Origin: Spirochaetia bacterium
GTDB taxonomy: Bacteria; Spirochaetota; Spirochaetia; CADAEX01
NCBI GenBank assembly: GCA_963662265.2
Contig: CAXXHA010000012.1
Coordinates: 1 to 41,674, forward strand
Direction: 5' to 3'
Length of the DNA stretch: 41,674 bases
The notes below the pieces were generated by a model. The model had not been told where the DNA came from and did not search any database. It saw nothing but the letters and a program-made list of their open reading frames with translations. A program made the position numbers and the translations under genes. Below, piece by piece: positions 15,639-24,615 of this stretch (its first letter is position 1; every line of letters starts with the position of its first letter).

Positions 15639-16130
15639 GTGTTCTACAGAATAATAAAAAACAAGAATAAACCTACCAGATATACATTTTTGCTGGCAGC
15701 CTCTGTATTTTTGCTTATTGCAGGTGCAGGGTATATTAAGTTCAATTTTTTTGATGATGATATTTATATTTCAGGTGATTCACTAACTGAAGAAGATCTT
15801 GCAGGTTCCTGGGTAGAGCCGATTCCCGGCCTGGATAATGATTCAGCAGATACCGGCGGGGGAGAAAACAGGACTCTTGATAAGGTGCAGGGCTTTACTC
15901 TCTATGAAGACGGCAGCGCTGAATCAATCAATATGCAGACTCTTCTTGTCCTGAAATGGAGGATTGAAAACGGGTATCTGATACTCACAGAGAAAAGCAT
16001 AGGAAACGGTACTTCTTCAACCGGGGAGGAAAGGTATAAAATTGTCAGTGCCGGAAAGAAAAAACTTGTACTGAGCCGGGTAGGCACTGTTTATGAGTAC
16101 ACGCGGCAAAGAAGTAAAAACAATAGCTGA
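15639..16130 (+). CDS. Membrane-anchored lipocalin-like domain protein
   Basis: N-terminal TM helix; L.GSWVEPIPG...QGF.L..DG.AESINM.TL...W pattern. Confidence 0.7.
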   Translation: MFYRIIKNKNKPTRYTFLLAASVFLLIAGAGYIKFNFFDDDIYISGDSLTEEDLAGSWVEPIPGLDNDSADTGGGENRTLDKVQGFTLYEDGSAESINMQTLLVLKWRIENGYLILTEKSIGNGTSSTGEERYKIVSAGKKKLVLSRVGTVYEYTRQRSKNNS

Positions 16131-16227
16131 AACAGCATTTTTCTGGTATCATATAACAATTCTATTTAAAAAAGAAACTTAAGAATAAGGGAAAAATCCA
16201 TCGAATAAAAAAGGATAATATCCAGCA

Positions 16228-18249
16228 ATGGCAACTAAAGCAGTATTAAACAACTTGGCAGATGAAATATGGAAATCAGCAATCCGCCTTAGAGGGAAAT
16301 TCAAGGCATACGAGTATCAGAGTGTTATTCTCCCTATAATAGTATTAAGACGTATCGAATGTGTTCTTATAAAGATGCGAGAAGATAAGGAAAAAGAATA
16401 TAGAATAGATAATCCCGGTTTAAAAGATAAGGAAGTAAATAAATTCTTAAAAAAATATGAAATATCACAATTCCCGTTTCACAATAAGACAAACTGGACA
16501 ATGGAGGCTATCTACCAGGAAGACCACACAACAATGGAGAAAAATTTCAGGGAGTATGTGAACGGTTTTTCAGATAATGTCCAGGATATTATTTCCCACT
16601 TTGACTACAGGGCAATAATAGGAAAAATGAAGAAAAACGGGCGTCTTGTGCCTATTATAAACCAGTACAGAAATGAAGACCTGAGTCCTGGCAGGATCAG
16701 CAATCTTGAAATGGGGTATATATATGAAGAACTTTTACGACGCTTTTCTGAGCAGAGCGGTGAAGAGGCAGGGGAGCATTTTACCCCAAGAGAAGTAATT
16801 TCTCTCATGGTTGAGCTTCTTGATATAAAAGTAAAAGACAGGCATGTTTCAATATATGATCCTGCATGCGGTACAGGAGGAATGCTGTCTGTTGCAAAAG
16901 CACATGTTATTGACAGAATTAAATCAAAAGAAGAAAAAGAACATGCTGAAAGCCTTATAACTCTCCATGGTCATGAAATACAGCCTCAGAATTATGCTGT
17001 ATGCAAGGCAGATATGCTTATCAAGAATGACAGAAAAGCTTATATATACTATGGAAACTCTCTTATACCCCATAAACCCGGAAGTGATGATCCGGGTGAT
17101 CAGCTGGCAGGGGAGGATGATAAATTTGACTTTATGCTTTCAAATCCACCATTCGGCGTTACATGGGGAGGGGAGGATGGTTATGAAAAAGAGGCAAAAC
17201 TATATAAAACTTCACGATATAAATGCGGGATGCCCCGAACAAATGACGGAGCTTTTCTTTTTCTTCTTTCAATGCTTGATAAAATGAAACCGGTGGATAA
17301 GGGGGGCAGCAGGATAGCTGTTATATTTAACGGGTCCCCTTTAAGCAACGGTGACTGCGGATCGGGAGAAAGTGAAATAAGAAGGTGGATCCTTGAAAAC
17401 GACTATCTTGATGCCATTGTAATGCTTCCTGACCAGCTGTTTTACAATACAGGTATCTACACATATATATGGATACTTACCAACAATAAGCCTTTAAGTC
17501 ACAAAGGGCGTGTAATGATTATTGACGGAAGGAAGCAGTTTGAAAAGGAGCCCAAATCTTTCGGAAAAAAGAGAAACAGGATTACAGATAAACATAGGAA
17601 ATGGATAGAAAAGCATTATAGAAAAGGCTGGGATAAAAATTACAATGATGAGAATGTAAAAATATTTAAGAACAAGGATTTTGCATATCATAAAGTATCA
17701 GTAACTTTCTGGCAGACAGATGAGGATGATAATCCCGGAATGATTACAGAGAGTTTTGGTGTCCAGCTTAATAACAATAATGTGAAAAAGAAGTTTGAAC
17801 TCTATGGAAATCTTGATTTCAGGCTTTATGTTGAATCCCCTGAAGGAATTAAAAAAGAATATGATATAAAAATTACTGAAAAATCAAAGACATTTGAAAC
17901 ACAGCTTGCAAATTTTGCACGAAAGGATTTTAAAGAACTTGATGAATTAAAAACATCATCAAATATCAGCAAGGAGATAAAAAAATGGAAAATATCTGCT
18001 TATTATACACATAGGGATTATATTCAGGATGATGAATATATCCCTTACGGCGTGAATATTGATGAGTTTTTAAAAAGGGAAATAGAAAAAGAAATTATAA
18101 AATGGGAAGAACGTCCCCAGCTGGGCTATGAAATACTTCCGAACAAGTACTTCTACAAGTACGAACCACCAAAACCGGCAGATGTTATTCTTGATGAGTT
18201 CTGGCAGCTAGAAAAAGAAGCGGAAGAAATTCTGAAAGGGCTTAAGTAA
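16228..18249 (+). CDS. hsdM: Type I restriction-modification methyltransferase subunit M (m6A)
   Basis: GEHFTPREV, YDPACGTGGM (motif I), NPPF (motif IV), LFYNTGI; long C-terminal extension. Confidence 0.95.
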   Translation: MATKAVLNNLADEIWKSAIRLRGKFKAYEYQSVILPIIVLRRIECVLIKMREDKEKEYRIDNPGLKDKEVNKFLKKYEISQFPFHNKTNWTMEAIYQEDHTTMEKNFREYVNGFSDNVQDIISHFDYRAIIGKMKKNGRLVPIINQYRNEDLSPGRISNLEMGYIYEELLRRFSEQSGEEAGEHFTPREVISLMVELLDIKVKDRHVSIYDPACGTGGMLSVAKAHVIDRIKSKEEKEHAESLITLHGHEIQPQNYAVCKADMLIKNDRKAYIYYGNSLIPHKPGSDDPGDQLAGEDDKFDFMLSNPPFGVTWGGEDGYEKEAKLYKTSRYKCGMPRTNDGAFLFLLSMLDKMKPVDKGGSRIAVIFNGSPLSNGDCGSGESEIRRWILENDYLDAIVMLPDQLFYNTGIYTYIWILTNNKPLSHKGRVMIIDGRKQFEKEPKSFGKKRNRITDKHRKWIEKHYRKGWDKNYNDENVKIFKNKDFAYHKVSVTFWQTDEDDNPGMITESFGVQLNNNNVKKKFELYGNLDFRLYVESPEGIKKEYDIKITEKSKTFETQLANFARKDFKELDELKTSSNISKEIKKWKISAYYTHRDYIQDDEYIPYGVNIDEFLKREIEKEIIKWEERPQLGYEILPNKYFYKYEPPKPADVILDEFWQLEKEAEEILKGLK

Positions 18250-19562
18250 TGATAGAAGGGTATAAGGATTCTGGGGTTGAGTGGATTGGTGAGATCCCTG
18301 AAGACTGGAAAATAAAGCAAATTAAAAGGTATTCAATAGTAAAAAGGGGTGCTTCTCCAAGACCTATCGATGATCCTGTTTATTTTGATGATGATGGTGA
18401 ATTTGCCTGGGTAAGAATTGCTGATGTTACTGCAAGTAATCAATATTTAGAAACCACAACACAAATATTATCTGACTTAGGCGTATCTTTAAGTGTTAAA
18501 CAATTTCCAGGGGATCTTTTTATCAGTATTGCTGGAACAGTAGGTAAACCAATAATCACAAAAATAAAATGTTGCATCCATGATGGTTTTATTTTGTTTG
18601 ACAATCCCCGGTTTGATAAACTTTTTCTGTATTTTATTTTCCTTAGTGGAAAGCCATATCAGGGATTGGGGAAGTTGGGAACTCAATTAAATCTTAATAC
18701 TGATACAATAGGACAAATCTATATACCAATACCTTCTAAAGATGAGCAGAAAATGATTGCTGATTATCTTAATGAAAAAGTATCTTTCATAGATAAAGCT
18801 ATGGAACTCAAGAAGAAGCAGCTTGAAAAGCTTGATGATCTTAAAAAGTCTGTTATCCATAAAGCTGTAACAAAAGGGCTTGATGATTCTGTAAACTTTA
18901 AAGATTCCGGAATAGATTGGATTGGAAAAATTCCTCAACACTGGAAAAGTAGAAGATTAAAAGATATTGGAAGAATAAAATATGGATTAGGACAGCCACC
19001 ACAGGAGATGGTAGATGGCCTTCCATTGATCAGAGCCACAAATGTTAATCGGGGGAAAATTGATCCAAATAATTTAATATATGTTGATCCTGAAGATATA
19101 CCTTTTGACCGTGATCCTATTTTGAGAAAAAATGATATTATAGTTGTAAGAAGTGGGGCATATACTGCAGATTCGGCGATAATTCCTGAAACATATGATG
19201 GAGCAATTACTGGATATGATATGGTTTTAAGATGTTTTAAAAATATATCACCTCAATTTATTAGTTTTATTTTATTAAGCAAATATGTTTTAGAGGACCA
19301 ATTGAAGTTGTTAACATTGAGAGCTGCTCAACCTCACTTAAATCGTGAAGAACTTGGTTCAACAGTTATTTTACTTCCTCCTCTCAAAGAACAGAAGCAG
19401 ATAGCTTTATACCTTGATAAAAAAACAGCAGAAATTGATTCTGTATCAGTGAAAATAAAACTTCAAATAGAAAAGCTTGAACAGTATAAAAAATCCCTTA
19501 TCCATGAATGTGTAACCGGAAAAAGAAGAATAATAGAAAAGGATGTAAAGGAGGCAGTGTAG
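18249..19562 (+). CDS. hsdS: Type I R-M specificity subunit S
   Basis: Duplicated conserved blocks YKDSGVEWIGEIPEDW / FKDSGIDWIGKIPQHW; P..EQ..IA.YL repeats flanking two TRDs; TAATG overlap with hsdM. Confidence 0.95.
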   Translation: MIEGYKDSGVEWIGEIPEDWKIKQIKRYSIVKRGASPRPIDDPVYFDDDGEFAWVRIADVTASNQYLETTTQILSDLGVSLSVKQFPGDLFISIAGTVGKPIITKIKCCIHDGFILFDNPRFDKLFLYFIFLSGKPYQGLGKLGTQLNLNTDTIGQIYIPIPSKDEQKMIADYLNEKVSFIDKAMELKKKQLEKLDDLKKSVIHKAVTKGLDDSVNFKDSGIDWIGKIPQHWKSRRLKDIGRIKYGLGQPPQEMVDGLPLIRATNVNRGKIDPNNLIYVDPEDIPFDRDPILRKNDIIVVRSGAYTADSAIIPETYDGAITGYDMVLRCFKNISPQFISFILLSKYVLEDQLKLLTLRAAQPHLNREELGSTVILLPPLKEQKQIALYLDKKTAEIDSVSVKIKLQIEKLEQYKKSLIHECVTGKRRIIEKDVKEAV

Positions 19563-20587
19563 TGGGAAAAGACCTTACAGTTTCCGATATAGACAGGCAG
19601 AATATTCTTAACAATCCCTATGCAGTTGAAGAAATAAGGAAAAATATAGGTCTCAAAGGCATAGAATATAAAGGTAAACTTGTCCTTACAAAAGAGCAGA
19701 TTGCTGACTTTTTTGAAGTTACAACCCGTACAATCGACAATTATCTGAGTTCAAACAGTGAGGAACTGAAGAAAAACGGTTACGCTGTTTTACGAGGTAA
19801 ATCCCTACAGGAACTGAAATTAGCCTTGAATGGGCTGGATGTCGACGAAATATATTTCGTCGACATCAAAAAGGCACCGAGTCTTGGTGTATTTGATTTC
19901 AGGGCCTTTCTTAACCTTGCAATGCTCATAACAGAGAGTGAGAAAGCAAGAGTAATGAGACAGGCTATCCTTGATATTGTAATTGATACAATAAACAGCA
20001 GGACAGGTGGTGCAACAAGATATGTTAATCAGAGGGATGAGGACTTCATAATTGCATATTTCCAGGAGGAAAACTACAGAAAGGAATTCACAGATTCACT
20101 TAAAAACTGCCTTGATATGGGTAAAGTTAAGTACCCTCTTTATACTGACAAGATATATGTAAGTATTTTTAAAGAAAACTCCCGGGAATACAGAAAAATT
20201 CTCAAGCTTCATGAAAAAGACAAGGTGCGTGATACTTTTTATTCCGAGATCCTTGATCTTATTGCTGCATATGAGTACGGATTTGCCAAAACCCTTGAAG
20301 AGGCATCTCATAAAGAGGGAAGAATGCTTTCCCCCTTTGAAGCGGATATCCTTTTTTCCGAATTTGAAAAACAGCCCCTCTGGAAGCCCCTTGTGGAAAG
20401 GGCAAGAAACAAGATGGCAAGCCGTGATCTTGCCTTCAGGGATGCGCTGCACCTTCAGCTGAAAGACTATATTTCCCCTCTTGAAGCAGCGGATTTTGAA
20501 AGGTTTATAGGGGAAAAGAGCCGGGAACTTGCAGAAAGGCTTGAAGATGCCAAAGATGTATTCAGGAGACTCAAGGAGCGGGAGTAA
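19562..20587 (+). CDS. Putative DNA-binding protein with antirepressor-like (ORF6N/KilA-N/RhuM-like) N-terminal domain
   Basis: GTG start at 19562 overlaps the hsdS stop (TAGTG) with an AAGGAGG RBS; HTH-like LTKEQIADFFEVTTRTIDNY; LRGKSL...RAFLNLAML..SEKA resembles phage antirepressor domains. Confidence 0.7.
   Translation: MGKDLTVSDIDRQNILNNPYAVEEIRKNIGLKGIEYKGKLVLTKEQIADFFEVTTRTIDNYLSSNSEELKKNGYAVLRGKSLQELKLALNGLDVDEIYFVDIKKAPSLGVFDFRAFLNLAMLITESEKARVMRQAILDIVIDTINSRTGGATRYVNQRDEDFIIAYFQEENYRKEFTDSLKNCLDMGKVKYPLYTDKIYVSIFKENSREYRKILKLHEKDKVRDTFYSEILDLIAAYEYGFAKTLEEASHKEGRMLSPFEADILFSEFEKQPLWKPLVERARNKMASRDLAFRDALHLQLKDYISPLEAADFERFIGEKSRELAERLEDAKDVFRRLKERE
19838..19867. repeat. Perfect 30-bp palindrome inside a CDS
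   Basis: GATGTCGACGAAATATATTTCGTCGACATC equals its own reverse complement. Confidence 0.97.
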
Positions 20588-21022
20588 ATGTCTGTAATTT
20601 ATATTACAATAGAAAATGCTCTTGAAATATATCATAAAACAATTGAAGTTAGCGGAGGCGGTTCTGATGGTATCCTAAACCAGGGACAGCTTGAAAGCAT
20701 ACTTACACACATCCAGAACGATGATTATTATCCTGACTTTTCAGACAAGCTCACCCATCTGTTTTTTTCTGCAAACCGTTTCCATTGCTTTGAGGACGGG
20801 AATAAAAGGATAGCAATATCTCTCGGTGCCCATTTTCTTCTTCTGAATGGGTATGTCTTTGTTGTACCCAGATTTATAAGGGAAATGGAGAATATCAGCT
20901 ATCATCTTGCTGCAGGGAAAATTGACAAGGAGTTTCTGAAAGAAGTTATTGAAGCTGTTATAAATGATGATATGGACAACGAAGAACTGAAATTAAAAAT
21001 ATTCGAAAGGATTAACAGGTAA
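20588..21022 (+). CDS. Fic/Doc family (death-on-curing type) protein
   Basis: HCFEDGNKRIA motif (Doc-type Lys, no second Arg); 144 aa; starts directly after the upstream TAA. Confidence 0.88.
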   Translation: MSVIYITIENALEIYHKTIEVSGGGSDGILNQGQLESILTHIQNDDYYPDFSDKLTHLFFSANRFHCFEDGNKRIAISLGAHFLLLNGYVFVVPRFIREMENISYHLAAGKIDKEFLKEVIEAVINDDMDNEELKLKIFERINR

Positions 21023-21027
21023 AAAAT

Positions 21028-23925
21028 ATGGGAGTTGAAAAGGATTTCCAGAAACATTTTGAAAACTTTCTCGGAAATGTTCACAAGTATGAAAAGTATT
21101 CAAATAATGATATTACAGACAAGGATTATTATTTTATTGAATCTGACATCATAGATTATATCAAGAAGAGACAGCCTTATGATTACAGGATTCTTGAGAA
21201 TAATTACGGAGATGATGCCACGGGAGAAATTATAAGGGCATTAAAAGAAGAGCTTGACCGTAAACCGCTCTGGATAATATTCAGACATGGCCTTGTTGTA
21301 AGAGAAATAAAATTTGATCTTTTTGACCGGATTCCAAGATCATCCGAATCAAAAGAAAATCCTTTGAATAATAAAATATCCTTTATACCGCAGCTGATAA
21401 TTAATGATGAGGAAAAACCTGATATTGTAATTTTTCTTAATGGACTCCCGATTATTGTCATAGAACTCAAGCATGAGAAAAACCAGAATATCCATGATGC
21501 TGTAAAACAGTTTAATGATAGGAATCATGACGACTTGATATTCCGACTTCCATTTTTATACATAGCTTCTGATACAAGCGAAGTTAAAGTTGCTACAGAT
21601 CCGTCAGGGGAAGAAAAATTTCTGTGGTATAATGAAGGCCTTTTTAACAAAGCTCATAATAAAGGGGAATATCCTGTTGAGTATCTTTACAGATCTGTTC
21701 TCTCAAGGGAAAACATCCTGAATATAATAAGTTTTTATCTTATTCATGTATCTAATAAAAATACTGACAATATAGATCCTTATACAATTTTTCCAAGATA
21801 CCATCAGTCCCGTATGGTTGAAAATGTCTGCAGTAATCTTGTTGAGTTTTATAAAGATAATGGATTTTGTGGAAGGAAATACCTTGTAAACCACTCTGCA
21901 GGTTCGGGTAAAACCCTTTCAATATGCTGGCTGGCAGACCGTCTTAACAGCCTCTATCTTGCGGGAACAGATAAAAAGATCATTGATATTGTATTTATTC
22001 TTACAGACAGGAAAGCTCTTGATAAAAACATTAAAGATGATATGGTTAAATTTACACATCTTGACGGAAAAGTAAAATATGCAATAAAGTCTGGAGATTT
22101 ACCGCGGTTTGTAAGGAAAAGAATTCCAATTATTGTGACAACAATGCAGAAAATAAACTGGATACTTGATGAACTTAAGAATGAACCTTCGCTTAAAGAA
22201 ATTAATACTGCATTTTTAATTGATGAAGCCCATAGATCGCAGGATGGGAGTTCTGGTACAAATATAAGAAATCTTTTCAAAGAAGATGAACCTGATATCC
22301 CGTTCAGAGAAGAAGATGAAGAAGATATAGTCAATGGTGAAATTGAAAAAGCACATCTTCCCAATCTGATGTGCGTAGCCTTTACTGCTACTCCTGTAAA
22401 ATCAACTCTTCAGCTTTTTGGCACCCCATTCGATGTTTATTCGGAATCTGAAGCTATTCAGGAGGGTTATATACTTGATGTTGCCTCAAGTATAATATCC
22501 TATAAAACGCTTTATAATCTTGAGAGCAGGATAATCAATCGAAAAGACCGAAAACTCTTTCAGCCTGGTATTTTAAGCAAGATGCTTAAAAATGTTGCAT
22601 ATCAGGATAAGGGCCTGATACAGTATAAAGCTGAGCTTATGCTTAGAATTTTTATAGAGGATGTTTATAATCTGATTGATAAAAAAGCAAAAGCAATGAT
22701 TGTAACCTCATCAAGAATTGCAGGTCTTTTTTATTATGAAGTTTTCAAGGAAAAGCTTAAAGAGAAGCGGGAAATCAATCCTGATTTGTATGATTTTGAT
22801 GTACTTTATGCTTTTTCCGATTTTACTCATCCAGAGACGGGGAAAGATATTACAGAAAAAGGGAAAAACTTTCTTCAGCAGAATGAACTGATTGAAGATC
22901 TGTTTAATACTGATAGATATAGACTTCTTGTAGTTGCAGATAAATTCCAGACTGGTTTTGATCAACCTCTGCTTGCAGCAATGTTTCTGGATAAGCCTGT
23001 ATCTGATAAAAATGCTGTCCAGACAGTATCAAGGCTTAACAGATGTCATGAAAACAAAGATAAGGTAGTGGTTGTAGATTTTACAAATAATGCATCAGAA
23101 ATTATTAAAGCTTTTAAGAAGTATCGTGATTCAACTCCGTATGAACCTGTTGAGCCTGATTATGAAAAACTTGACGAATTATACAATGAAATTATTTCAT
23201 ATTCCATTTTTAATCAGCAGACAGCTGAAGCGACAATTGCTATTTTGAAGAAAAATAGTGATGCGGAAATTCAAAGCTGCATTCAGGAACTGAGGATGCT
23301 TTTTTTCAGCAGGATAAAAGATTTTGAATCAGGAAAAGAATATGTAAACAAACTCAGCAGGTTTAATAAACTTGCAGTTTTTTTAAGTAACTTTTTTACA
23401 ATTGAGCATGATAAAGATATTTTTTCTGATTTCTGCATGCTTGTTTATCCCCAACTTTTCAAGAAAGGGGGAGAATCAGAACTTAAAAAAATAATCAAAA
23501 ACATCTATGTTTCAAGAGGATTGGTAAAATATACAGGCATAAAGAAATTAAAAGGCAAATATAAAAAGAAAAAAGGGTGTGGAGTTTCGGAATTTCCCCC
23601 TATTGAGAAAGTTACTATAAAAGAAATGCTTGATGATATTAAAGAAAAATATTCAATATCAGAAAAAGAAGCTATAGTAATTCGTGAAGTATGCGAAGAA
23701 AAAATGAATGATGATACAATAAAGAAAATAATTATTAATAATTTGCATGATACTTCTTATCTTTTTAATCATTATAAAAGAGATATCAGGGATTCAATTG
23801 AAAACAGCTATGAAAAAAGAAAACTATCAGCATGTCTGATAGATGAAAAATACACAGATAAGGGTTCAATCTTTGATATCATGTCACATACAGTTATAAA
23901 ACTTACAGCTGATGAGTGTGCATAA
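21028..23925 (+). CDS. hsdR: Type I restriction endonuclease subunit R
   Basis: PD...NGLP...ELK nuclease motif; HSAGSGKT Walker A; DEAH; FTATP; TGFDQP; QTVSRLNR. Confidence 0.94.
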   Translation: MGVEKDFQKHFENFLGNVHKYEKYSNNDITDKDYYFIESDIIDYIKKRQPYDYRILENNYGDDATGEIIRALKEELDRKPLWIIFRHGLVVREIKFDLFDRIPRSSESKENPLNNKISFIPQLIINDEEKPDIVIFLNGLPIIVIELKHEKNQNIHDAVKQFNDRNHDDLIFRLPFLYIASDTSEVKVATDPSGEEKFLWYNEGLFNKAHNKGEYPVEYLYRSVLSRENILNIISFYLIHVSNKNTDNIDPYTIFPRYHQSRMVENVCSNLVEFYKDNGFCGRKYLVNHSAGSGKTLSICWLADRLNSLYLAGTDKKIIDIVFILTDRKALDKNIKDDMVKFTHLDGKVKYAIKSGDLPRFVRKRIPIIVTTMQKINWILDELKNEPSLKEINTAFLIDEAHRSQDGSSGTNIRNLFKEDEPDIPFREEDEEDIVNGEIEKAHLPNLMCVAFTATPVKSTLQLFGTPFDVYSESEAIQEGYILDVASSIISYKTLYNLESRIINRKDRKLFQPGILSKMLKNVAYQDKGLIQYKAELMLRIFIEDVYNLIDKKAKAMIVTSSRIAGLFYYEVFKEKLKEKREINPDLYDFDVLYAFSDFTHPETGKDITEKGKNFLQQNELIEDLFNTDRYRLLVVADKFQTGFDQPLLAAMFLDKPVSDKNAVQTVSRLNRCHENKDKVVVVDFTNNASEIIKAFKKYRDSTPYEPVEPDYEKLDELYNEIISYSIFNQQTAEATIAILKKNSDAEIQSCIQELRMLFFSRIKDFESGKEYVNKLSRFNKLAVFLSNFFTIEHDKDIFSDFCMLVYPQLFKKGGESELKKIIKNIYVSRGLVKYTGIKKLKGKYKKKKGCGVSEFPPIEKVTIKEMLDDIKEKYSISEKEAIVIREVCEEKMNDDTIKKIIINNLHDTSYLFNHYKRDIRDSIENSYEKRKLSACLIDEKYTDKGSIFDIMSHTVIKLTADECA

Positions 23926-23955
23926 TTTATCTGTTTTCAAAACATGATTTAAGAA

Positions 23956-24615
23956 TTATTCTTTTCTGCTGTTCTTCTTCCGTCTCTCTTTAGAAAGCTC
24001 GCTGGGAGATGCTTTAAGTGACTTTACTGCCGGCAGTTTTATATCAAGCTTCATTGCGATAAGCCTGATTCCTGTTGTAGTAAGAAATGTGAGGAAAAAA
24101 ACAATAGTGGGGTTTATATCCAGCCTGTTGAGCAGTGAAAAAACAATTCCCCCGATTATTGTTGCGGTTGCATAGAAGTCTTTTTTAAGTATTATTGGTA
24201 TCTCGTTAGCCAGGAGATCCCGGACAACTCCGCCTCCGGTTGCTGTCATTGTCCCTGTCATGAGTATTCCAATAACTCCCAGTCCCGAGCCGAGACCTTT
24301 TGAAGCTCCTATGAAAGTAAAAACACCCAGCCCTACCGCATCGAGGATGAGTATGATGTTCCATCTTTCTGCAATCTTTTTTGAAAGGAAAAAGACCAGG
24401 AAAGCCCCTGCAATACAGGTAATCAGGTATTCCTCATGCTGAAGTGCTGCCGGTGGGACTGAGCCTATCAGAAGGTCCCTTATCATTCCTCCACCTATAC
24501 CTGTGGCAATCGCGAGTATTGTGACTCCGAATATATCGAGTTCATATTTAACAGCTTTGATAGCCCCTGATATGGCAAAAATAAGAGTTCCGAAAATATC
24601 AAGAAAATATATCAT
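23956..24615 (-). CDS. TRIC/UPF0126 (YadS-like) membrane protein, possible glycine transporter
   Basis: FAISGA...DIFG...GIGGG..RD.L.G and DAVGLG...GGG..RD.L internal repeats. Confidence 0.88.
   Translation of the reverse strand: MIYFLDIFGTLIFAISGAIKAVKYELDIFGVTILAIATGIGGGMIRDLLIGSVPPAALQHEEYLITCIAGAFLVFFLSKKIAERWNIILILDAVGLGVFTFIGASKGLGSGLGVIGILMTGTMTATGGGVVRDLLANEIPIILKKDFYATATIIGGIVFSLLNRLDINPTIVFFLTFLTTTGIRLIAMKLDIKLPAVKSLKASPSELSKERRKKNSRKE

Follow-up and report, generated by a model that had tools for sequence, protein, structure and literature searches.

What does a perfect palindrome do inside the coding sequence of a DNA-binding protein? The question is raised by a 30-bp element in the genome of a Spirochaetia bacterium (GenBank assembly GCA_963662265.2, contig CAXXHA010000012.1), of which the stretch of 41,674 nucleotides analysed here is referred to as the window. 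The element, GATGTCGACGAAATATATTTCGTCGACATC, lies at window positions 19838-19867, is 100% self-complementary with 15-bp arms and no spacer, and has its centre at 19852/19853. It is aligned to the codons of a gene that we call X, in which it covers codons 93-102 and encodes the peptide DVDEIYFVDI when the gene is read from a GTG at 19562. The product of X carries a helix-turn-helix (HTH) motif in its N-terminal domain; the gene stands in a type I restriction-modification (R-M) operon and is followed directly by a gene for a Doc-family toxin. The first-pass annotation of the window had described the palindrome as perfect, spacerless and codon-aligned, and our analysis confirms this description. 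By comparing related genes at the DNA level we find a dyad element that is under constraint of both sequence and symmetry, is coupled to the predicted recognition helix of the protein in whose gene it lies, and is constantly found next to Doc. On balance these sequence patterns incline us, with a little more than even confidence, to the view that the palindrome is a self-encoded operator through which X would regulate its own expression.

The palindrome had been said to be without peer in the window, and this stands: a scan lists 11 inverted repeats, of which GATGTCGACGAAATATATTTCGTCGACATC is the sole one at 100% complementarity. It occurs at a single locus in the 3.77-Mb genome with a tolerance of up to three mismatches. 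The genome in total contains 98 perfect palindromes (arms of at least 12, loop of at most 5), most of them intergenic, against 1-3 in each Markov-1 simulated genome (n = 3). GATGTCGACGAAATATATTTCGTCGACATC belongs to the 24 with arms of at least 15 and is one of the three among these that lie inside an open frame of at least 900 nt. A perfect palindrome is unique within the window, not within the genome. As single-stranded DNA the 30-mer has a folding energy of -16.1 kcal/mol (z = -6.2). The two GTCGAC sites noted earlier inside the 30-mer are present, though most homologues are without them, and they are incidental. The claim that such an element is unlikely to arise by chance is borne out by its relatives, since arms of 13-15 bp persist, with covariation, across 143 unique homologous genes from many phyla.

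The X family comprises 6,412 proteins at E <= 0.001 among 7,999 candidates scored, with about 70% identity across phyla. DNA was examined for the best 80 of 392 genome relatives and the best 80 of 395 metagenome relatives, and 161 sequences yielded 157 full-length frames, 143 of them unique, after the removal of three with an internal stop (L087, L023 and L123; related loci are numbered with an L) and one that was not full length. According to their record titles, the genomes sampled include Spirochaetes, Chlorobi, Zixibacteria, Verrucomicrobia/Kiritimatiellae, Planctomycetes, Desulfobacterota, several proteobacterial classes, Hydrogenedentes, Acidobacteria and others, and the genes range from 34 to 57% GC. 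When every possible centre in the codon alignment of the 143 unique genes is scanned, 19852/19853 gives 90.6% Watson-Crick pairing, against a mean of 24.9% (standard deviation 7.3) at other centres and 48% at the runner-up. The formal count was made on an ungapped DNA alignment of 40 columns (A3), with 13 pairs in 130 distinct homologues and 1,690 cells: 92.9% of cells are paired, against 79.9% after shuffling (none of 500 shuffles reaches the observed value), and moving the partner along by 1-3 columns leaves 33-52% paired. Both sides have changed in 10 of the 13 pairs, so that the compensatory changes between arms anticipated in the first-pass annotation are present across these homologues. 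Whole codons are swapped jointly (GAC/GTC, CCC/GGG, CAC/GTG, ACC/GGT, AAC/GTT, AAT/ATT, CGC/GCG), with further exchanges of GTT/AAC for GGT/ACC or GAT/ATC and of GAT/ATC for TTT/AAA or CAT/ATG, and the near-invariant GAA/TTC pair also becomes GAC/GTC in some homologues.

The choice between synonymous codons is fixed as well. Glutamate codons inside the palindrome are GAA in 138 of 138 cases (55% elsewhere in the same genes), proline codons are CCC in 57 of 57 (33% elsewhere), and codon 99 is TTC in 139 of 143 sequences and GTC in the remaining four. Because the pairing is conserved, the arms covary and synonymous codons are pinned, the constraint appears to act on the nucleic acid, the peptide following the DNA and not the reverse. 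Indel classes suggested by gaps in the protein alignment are an artefact; in the ungapped DNA the 'FGNETDFVTK' class is a full palindrome with TTT/AAA and GGT/ACC swaps. The palindrome is retained in about 130 of the 143 sequences, and in 975 kb of related loci 87 of the 111 perfect palindromes (arms of at least 11, loop of at most 6) are the X site; several of the other 24 lie within ORF6N or DUF1016 genes. Two genes that are 96.5% identical (L116 and L142) show several differences in the palindrome, including a compensated change of GTT/AAC to GGT/ACC, and between them the palindrome evolves faster than the remainder of the gene.

The constrained molecule is, on present indications, DNA rather than RNA. 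If the stem were formed by RNA of the coding strand, G:U should be much more readily accepted in it than A:C; mismatches over pairs 3-15 comprise 40 G:T and 39 A:C. A search of window positions 16000-24000 against Rfam gives no match at E values up to 1, and in 16 related loci the same search finds only tRNAs, a CRISPR repeat and weak chance matches. The sequencing runs listed for the stretch, four from one study, include none of RNA. Since G:T is no commoner than A:C, and since Rfam has no match, action at the DNA level is favoured, and the mRNA hairpin that the earlier annotation had listed among its options is disfavoured.

The strongest indication of what reads this DNA comes from the recognition helix. 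In the structure model of X the HTH is formed by residues 44-50 and 55-71, and the palindrome peptide occupies a loop of low confidence (residues 96-98 have a predicted local distance difference test score, pLDDT, below 50) between a helix at 80-92 and a strand at 107-112, in an N-terminal domain that is otherwise confidently modelled; the earlier description of a variable segment between conserved blocks was a fair one. The half-site cores of the palindrome are its positions 8-12 and 19-23 (pairs 4-8 from the centre), with centres 11 bp apart, a spacing that is usual for the operators of HTH dimers. Residue 59, in the recognition helix, switches with pair 8: with Glu the pair is C:G in 65 of 73 sequences (the right-arm base being G in 70), and with Asp it is A:T in 58 of 65 (the right-arm base being T in 63). 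On a maximum-likelihood tree from which residues 59-60 and 90-108 were left out, residue 59 changes about 30 times and pair 8 about 34 times, and of 13 independent pairs on supported branches 12.8 are concordant and 0 opposite (p ~2.4e-4). A second tree, for which only DNA of the N-terminal domain was used and the trait codons were taken out, gives 8.9 of 9 concordant (p ~0.004). When all variable residues between 20 and 200 are ranked by concordance, residue 59 comes first, at 0.99, followed by residues 70 (0.95; 7.6 of 8), 103 (0.92; 3.7 of 4) and 55 (0.85; 10.3 of 12). Linkage is insufficient to explain the coupling, because the residues that lie between residue 59 and the palindrome score only 0.17-0.58, and by the N-terminal-only tree together with the scan of all residues, recombination linkage does not account for it.

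The neighbouring residue 60 follows the same pattern. It is Arg in all four sequences with C:G at pair 4 (GAA to GAC and TTC to GTC), where the usual pair is A:T, and among the other 139 it is Asn in 132 and Arg in none; the four R60 sequences form two clades, for which the tree scores two separate changes. Asparagine with adenine, arginine with guanine and glutamate with cytosine are pairs known from direct readout of DNA. The joint switches of residues 59 and 60 with pairs 8 and 4 would fit the earlier suggestion of an intragenic operator, and the covariation of the 130 distinct homologues is consistent with its companion, in which covarying arms couple the specificity of the protein to its own DNA site.

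Similar in-frame palindromes had been said to occur in ORF6N, RhuM and DUF1016 genes, and we find them in all three. In 25 genomes of the window's phylum, 25 of 26 intact ORF6N domains carry a palindrome (arms 8-15) at the motif L-R-S-Q-[IF]-[AV]-T-S, as do 47 of 49 unique domains in phage contigs. Across the ORF6N loci L163-L192 and L223-L302 (for example L164, L188, L171 and L192) palindromes with arms of 8-17 are seen at the LRSQ motif. In a by-eye alignment the ORF6N palindrome begins 27 residues before the ...AML... motif and that of X 29 residues before its counterpart, and the two appear to sit at matching places. In 75 unique domains the recognition helix again tracks pair 4 from the centre: Gln at helix position 6 goes with A:T (47/47), Arg at position 3 plus Glu at position 6 with G:C (21/21), and Arg or Lys at position 6 with C:G (6/6). 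This rule accounts for 74 of the 75 domains, and the remaining one is likely to be mis-centred.

A subfamily of ORF6N provides a further argument. Here the 17-base core GGTCACAAATTGTGACC is read in another frame, as ..VVTNCDHL.., and the variable base falls in different codons in each frame: in one arm it is silent, and in the other it is coding. In this alternative frame Gln goes with A:T in five of five sequences (L171, L192, L352, L359 and L370), Glu goes with G:C in L305, whose gene is broken at the N-terminus, and in L306 Arg..Glu goes with a G that is present on the left arm alone. A rule at the DNA level would cover both frames, where a rule of protein contacts would need two different contacts; this frame independence, which rests on seven sequences, argues against a purely protein-internal contact. 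Matches to the 17-mer in viral contigs were considered as extra operators and rejected, as about 12 of 101 unique contexts among the matches listed are ORF6N; many of the other contexts seem to be plain terminator hairpins or coding sequence of an unrelated kind. One viral contig (L427) has a gene that is Bro-N-like by eye, with the 17-mer GGTCGCAAATTGCGACC at the matching loop (..KLGSQIATSGQ..), and the feature may extend to the Bro-N family.

In 11 of 24 loci, at a score of at least 10, RhuM genes (PF13310; loci L308-L331) have at residues 63-93 a palindrome of the type CAGTT-N5-loop-N5-AACTG, for example at L324:1502-1528, and a twelfth locus (L325) has the same palindrome sequence in a broken frame. 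Its inner bases covary and, by eye, the class of the upstream HTH tracks the class of the palindrome. DUF1016/YhcG genes (L193-L222) have hypervariable palindromes before a PW.H or SW.H motif in 15 of 30 loci at a score of at least 11. One DUF1016/YhcG gene contains three in-frame tandem palindromes (L207:1113-1227), and another, at locus L091, is split into two overlapping frames exactly at its palindrome (L091:1699-1725).

From this analysis, we propose that X most likely binds the DNA of the palindrome in the form of a dimer and that, once bound, it would hold transcription down. A dimer of X would use its HTH to bind the dyad site inside the DNA that encodes its own DNA-binding domain. Bound X would form a roadblock about 276 nt into the gene, and the outcome would be negative autoregulation of X-Doc and of anything downstream. 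The operator would lie about 100 nt from the codons of the recognition helix, and through this proximity site and reader would be inherited together wherever the cassette lands. The arms would be kept symmetric since both half-sites must fit one protein, template switching during replication probably helping by copying arm onto arm, and the loop peptide would be largely dictated by the DNA. A broader form of this proposal, which we regard as plausible and somewhat short of an even chance, is that a whole superfamily of HTH proteins from phages and defence islands (X, or PDC-M59A, together with ORF6N, RhuM and perhaps Bro-N) writes its operator into the gene for its own DNA-binding domain as a portable unit of about 130 bp; template switching between the arms would alter the two half-sites in one step, and one helix change could then re-specify the pair. 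If this were true, it would account for no fewer than 9-13 independent switches between Glu and Asp in X and for the Glu, Gln and Arg classes of ORF6N, the many paralogous cassettes of one cell would be kept from regulating each other, and LRSQIATS and VVTNCDHL would be one operator in two frames.

Several observations weigh against the operator reading. The coupling in X could reflect packing within the protein, as the covarying bases are the codons of residues 95/100 and 96/99, and the combinations D59/V100 versus E59/G100 and N60/F99 versus R60/V99 resemble volume swaps. In mismatched cases the association tracks the right arm slightly better. Residues 59 and 60 are neighbours, and it is a stretch to have them read pairs that lie 4 bp from each other; the pairs further out (9, 11, 14 and 15 from the centre) covary as well, with no reader found for them. 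Two clades have decayed palindromes: one (L019, L043, L044, L047 and L157) keeps 8 of 13 pairs, and in the other (L009, L011, L021, L023, L085 and L096) only a 6-7-bp core is left. Extra copies of the arms are not enriched near the gene (17 arm-like 11-mers against 12 in shuffled sequence, over 867 kb), so there is no promoter operator as in the usual toxin-antitoxin systems. Beyond X, the ORF6N tree is poorly resolved and offers three independent pairs on supported branches, all concordant; sequence homology of X to either family is weak, hhalign giving a probability of 4.9% with 21 ORF6N domains and of 1.6% with RhuM, where 29 HTH columns are aligned; and the DUF1016 palindromes carry no demonstrated link to an HTH.

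The best-surviving alternative, which we consider unlikely, is that the palindrome has no function and perpetuates itself, template switching repeatedly copying one arm onto the other, so that the symmetry lasts and double changes appear at a single stroke, while the coupling of residues 59 and 60 arises from packing against loop residues 99 and 100. Template switching is documented to create and maintain hairpin stems (PMC8794818). The fast concerted evolution seen between L116 and L142, the mismatch spectrum that is neutral to wobble, the position of the peptide in a low-confidence loop, the resemblance of D/V versus E/G and N/F versus R/V to volume swaps, and the hypervariable palindromes of DUF1016 with the tandem triple of L207 would all agree with it. 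It leaves unexplained the base-specific matching of Q to A:T, of E to G:C and of R to C:G and its independence of frame, the invariant core and the 11-bp spacing of half-sites, and retention in about 130 of 143 sequences across phyla. In one heavily decayed ORF6N pseudogene (L303, six stops) the palindrome has decayed too, which as a single case weighs a little against pure self-maintenance.

Less probable again is that the DNA forms a hairpin or cruciform whose structure is recognised by a factor other than X, such as a junction or hairpin nuclease, a stalled R-M translocase, or the replication or transfer machinery, in which case pairing would matter and sequence would not. In its favour are the strict Watson-Crick covariation of almost all variable pairs, those further out among them, a mismatch spectrum that is alike on both strands, and an AT-rich centre in a stable stem, and the R-M operon and defence-island context is in keeping with it. 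DUF1016/YhcG genes, with a palindrome of their own, are found near some loci, and their nuclease domain is described in PMC1189080 as resembling archaeal junction resolvases. This explanation does not predict the coupling to the recognition helix, the core sequence is invariant and not free, and the same feature is present in phage ORF6N genes outside a defence context. A stem of 13-15 bp is, moreover, short for stable cruciform extrusion.

A stem-loop in the mRNA, serving in processing by RNase III or as a pause or stability element that sets the ratio of X to Doc or of modification to restriction subunits, we judge to be improbable. RNA of the site would be able to fold into a 13-bp stem closed by a 4-nt loop, compensatory changes resemble those of structured RNAs, and the gene overlaps indicate that X is co-transcribed with its neighbours. 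Against this stand the equal tolerance of the two mismatch types and the absence of an Rfam match, on which grounds a structured cis-regulatory RNA was rejected, and the coupling to helix residues, which such an RNA leaves unexplained. The loop is not of a stable tetraloop type, prediction of promoters and terminators calls none at the palindrome, and there is no U-tract at the site. That a mobile palindromic element, such as a repetitive extragenic palindrome (REP), a rickettsial palindromic element (RPE) or a sequence like a miniature inverted-repeat transposable element (MITE), has inserted in frame into a tolerant loop can be set aside almost entirely, the tandem palindromes inside the DUF1016 gene of L207 being in its favour, since it is contradicted by the single genomic locus and by the same codons carrying the element in homologues of many phyla, whose 143-sequence alignment is ungapped.

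If X reads the palindrome, as we favour, its control would extend to the gene of its predicted partner. The Doc gene lies within a few bases 3' of X in 155 of 160 loci (1 nt separates the stop of X from the start of doc in the window); of the five loci with no Doc match, three stop 50 nt or less past X, and L020 and L031 have room and still show none. The Doc protein scores 45.8 bits against TIGR01550 (cut-off 38.65), and residues H66, F68, D70, G71, N72, K73 and R74 within its motif HCFQDGNKR, which we take to be the Doc catalytic motif, are invariant in 23 sequences. X matches the PADLOC profile PDC-M59A over positions 2-335 of 338 (E 3.5e-102) and Doc matches PDC-M59B (E 5.6e-38); with both full-length matches and the genes adjacent, the pair is by sequence a PDC-M59 system, an uncharacterised phage-defence candidate. 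Other searches place X less firmly. The Pfam ORF6N model (PF10543) gives 24.5 bits, below its gathering cut-off of 27.8, and covers only residues 34-86; the Pfam scan has no match of X to RhuM (PF13310), and X matches no NCBIfam family. In searches of solved structures by sequence neither X nor ORF6N has a match below E 0.1, and a Foldseek search of X against the PDB has none at E <= 0.001; its weak top matches, DdrC and MarR-type winged helices at E 0.06-2, give only a hint of a winged-helix fold. The gene most plausibly begins with the GTG at 19562; this codon overlaps the hsdS stop, and a GGAGG is present 8 nt upstream of it.

Co-folding of X with Doc supports the prediction that the two proteins bind each other: the median score is 0.64 against 0.00 for the best of three controls, the partner pLDDT is at least 84, and contact agreement between runs is at least 61%, a mark that 58 of the 80 solved complexes attain, as do 2 of the 110 mismatched pairs, counts that are only a rough guide here, own alignments having been used. 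In the predicted interface, residues 130-151 and 316-340 of X meet a set of Doc residues to which 71-74 of the catalytic motif belong. X thus appears to be built like a type II antitoxin, with an N-terminal DNA-binding domain and a C-terminal part that is predicted to lie over the active site of Doc.

The surroundings of X-Doc vary. Among 24 loci picked at random, each with flanks of 2.9 kb or more on both sides, the pair lies between the type III R-M genes mod and res in nine, inside type I hsd operons in four, and in unrelated or other defence contexts in eleven. The pair is placed between mod (N6_N4_Mtase) and res (ResIII plus RE_endonuc) in L033, L047, L051, L059, L062, L077, L079, L108 and L117. 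Because these contexts differ, the palindrome belongs to the X-Doc cassette and not to the control of hsdR as such; the specific link to hsdR drawn in the earlier annotation is unsupported, as the palindrome moves with X-Doc, into the eleven unrelated contexts too. Two single loci add to this variety: in a Chlorobiota genome a CRISPR array of six repeats (Rfam CRISPR-DR8; L010:40-453) lies about 3.5 kb upstream of X-Doc, and in L083 RmuC follows immediately after Doc. The features of the window are collected in Table 1.

Table 1. Positions in the window of gene X, its palindrome and the neighbouring genes.
Feature	Position	Strand	Basis or remark
hsdM, type I methylase	16228..18249	+	
hsdS, specificity subunit	18249..19562	+	Stop overlaps start of X
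Gene X, 341 aa, N-terminal HTH (ORF6N-like) and helical C-terminal part	19562..20587	+	PDC-M59A match, structure model
Predicted recognition helix (TRTIDNYLSSN...), codons 55-71 of X	19724..19774	+	Model; D59 and N60 = 19736-19741
Perfect 30-bp palindrome, 15-bp arms, proposed dyad operator	19838..19867		Codons 93-102 of X
Doc-family toxin gene, 144 aa, motif HCFQDGNKR	20588..21022	+	TIGR01550, PDC-M59B
hsdR, restriction subunit	21028..23925	+	Downstream of doc

The arrangement resembles type II toxin-antitoxin systems such as Phd-Doc and YefM-YoeB, in which the gene of a DNA-binding antitoxin directly precedes the toxin gene, the C-terminus of the antitoxin covers the active site of the toxin, as is predicted for X, and a palindromic DNA site matches the antitoxin. 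Paired palindromes are reported to serve as operators of such systems (PMC1802561 and PMC3920265). X differs in being far larger than Phd, at 341 residues, and outside the Phd family, in having its site 276 nt inside the antitoxin coding sequence with no extra copies nearby, where toxin-antitoxin operators lie at promoters, and in that the module is mostly embedded in other operons, unlike the usual type II system. Binding sites inside coding sequences have precedents in the PurR site in purB, the iterons of the lambda origin in gene O and the pT181 origin in repC, and lambda O and pT181 RepC bind within their own genes. These share with the X site a dyad protein-binding site that is translated as part of a gene; the X site differs from them in lying within the coding region of the DNA-binding domain, in covarying repeatedly with the recognition helix, in recurring across families (X, ORF6N and RhuM) and in showing no indication of a role in replication.

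Controller (C) proteins with their C-boxes are also HTH regulators of R-M operons that act at a palindromic site, as is proposed for X, and they limit or time the expression of restriction genes. They are reported to fall into specificity groups that avoid cross-talk (PMC2691842 and PMC2647307). Unlike X, they have about 80 residues, are part of type II systems and have their binding site upstream of the gene that encodes them, whereas X is paired with Doc and is also found outside R-M operons; X was rejected as a C protein with a C-box on its size of 341 residues and on the lack of extra arm copies in its flanks. ORF6N and RhuM share with X the pattern of the HTH motif, the order of domains, a coding palindrome in the loop after the HTH, and a helix class that tracks the class of the palindrome, whereas the palindromes themselves are unrelated in sequence (CGAAA..TTTCG in X, TCRCAA.TTGYGA in ORF6N and CAGTT..AACTG in RhuM). 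The quasi-palindromes made by template switching have the same perfect arms, compensated changes of several bases and concerted evolution of arms (PMC8794818); that mechanism is mutational and needs no function, and for X it is proposed only as the keeper of identical half-sites.

Palindromic operators, autoregulation by antitoxins and binding sites inside genes are already known. As far as we have found, an operator in the coding sequence of the DNA-binding domain that reads it, switching repeatedly with its reader and recurring across families, is apparently new: the literature covered on ORF6N, DUF1016/YhcG, RhuM and intragenic autoregulation, from which most subscription journals fall outside, contains no description of these coding palindromes that we could find. 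If the proposal is true, it gives a functional handle on three very large uncharacterised families (X with more than 6,400 homologues, ORF6N and RhuM) that fill R-M operons, defence islands and phages. It would describe a compact autoregulatory circuit in which recombination cannot separate operator from reader, which suits cassettes that enter foreign operons, and it would predict how the expression of the Doc toxin and of the restriction subunit downstream is held in check. The residue and base-pair switches form a natural table (E with C:G, D with A:T, N with A:T, R with C:G and Q with A:T), and they carry a warning that what passes for a 'conserved protein motif' is in some cases a conserved DNA site.

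Other palindromes and hairpins were noted in passing. A terminator-like hairpin (GCACCGAGTCTTGGTGT plus a T-rich tail) lies at window positions 19874-19890, 7 nt past the palindrome and within the conserved coding stretch APSLGVFDF, and terminator-like hairpins are called five times in the palindrome region against 1.3 expected. About ten palindromes are found in coding regions across the window's genome, and three perfect ones (arms 12-13) are grouped within 1.4 kb inside long open frames (G000 C29:165844-167250). Outside open frames, two separate contigs carry near-identical palindromes of 57 bp with 28-bp arms (ATTAATTTTACAGGGTG...; G000 C32:175607-175663 and C40:36610-36666), which may be the ends of a repeat or mobile element.

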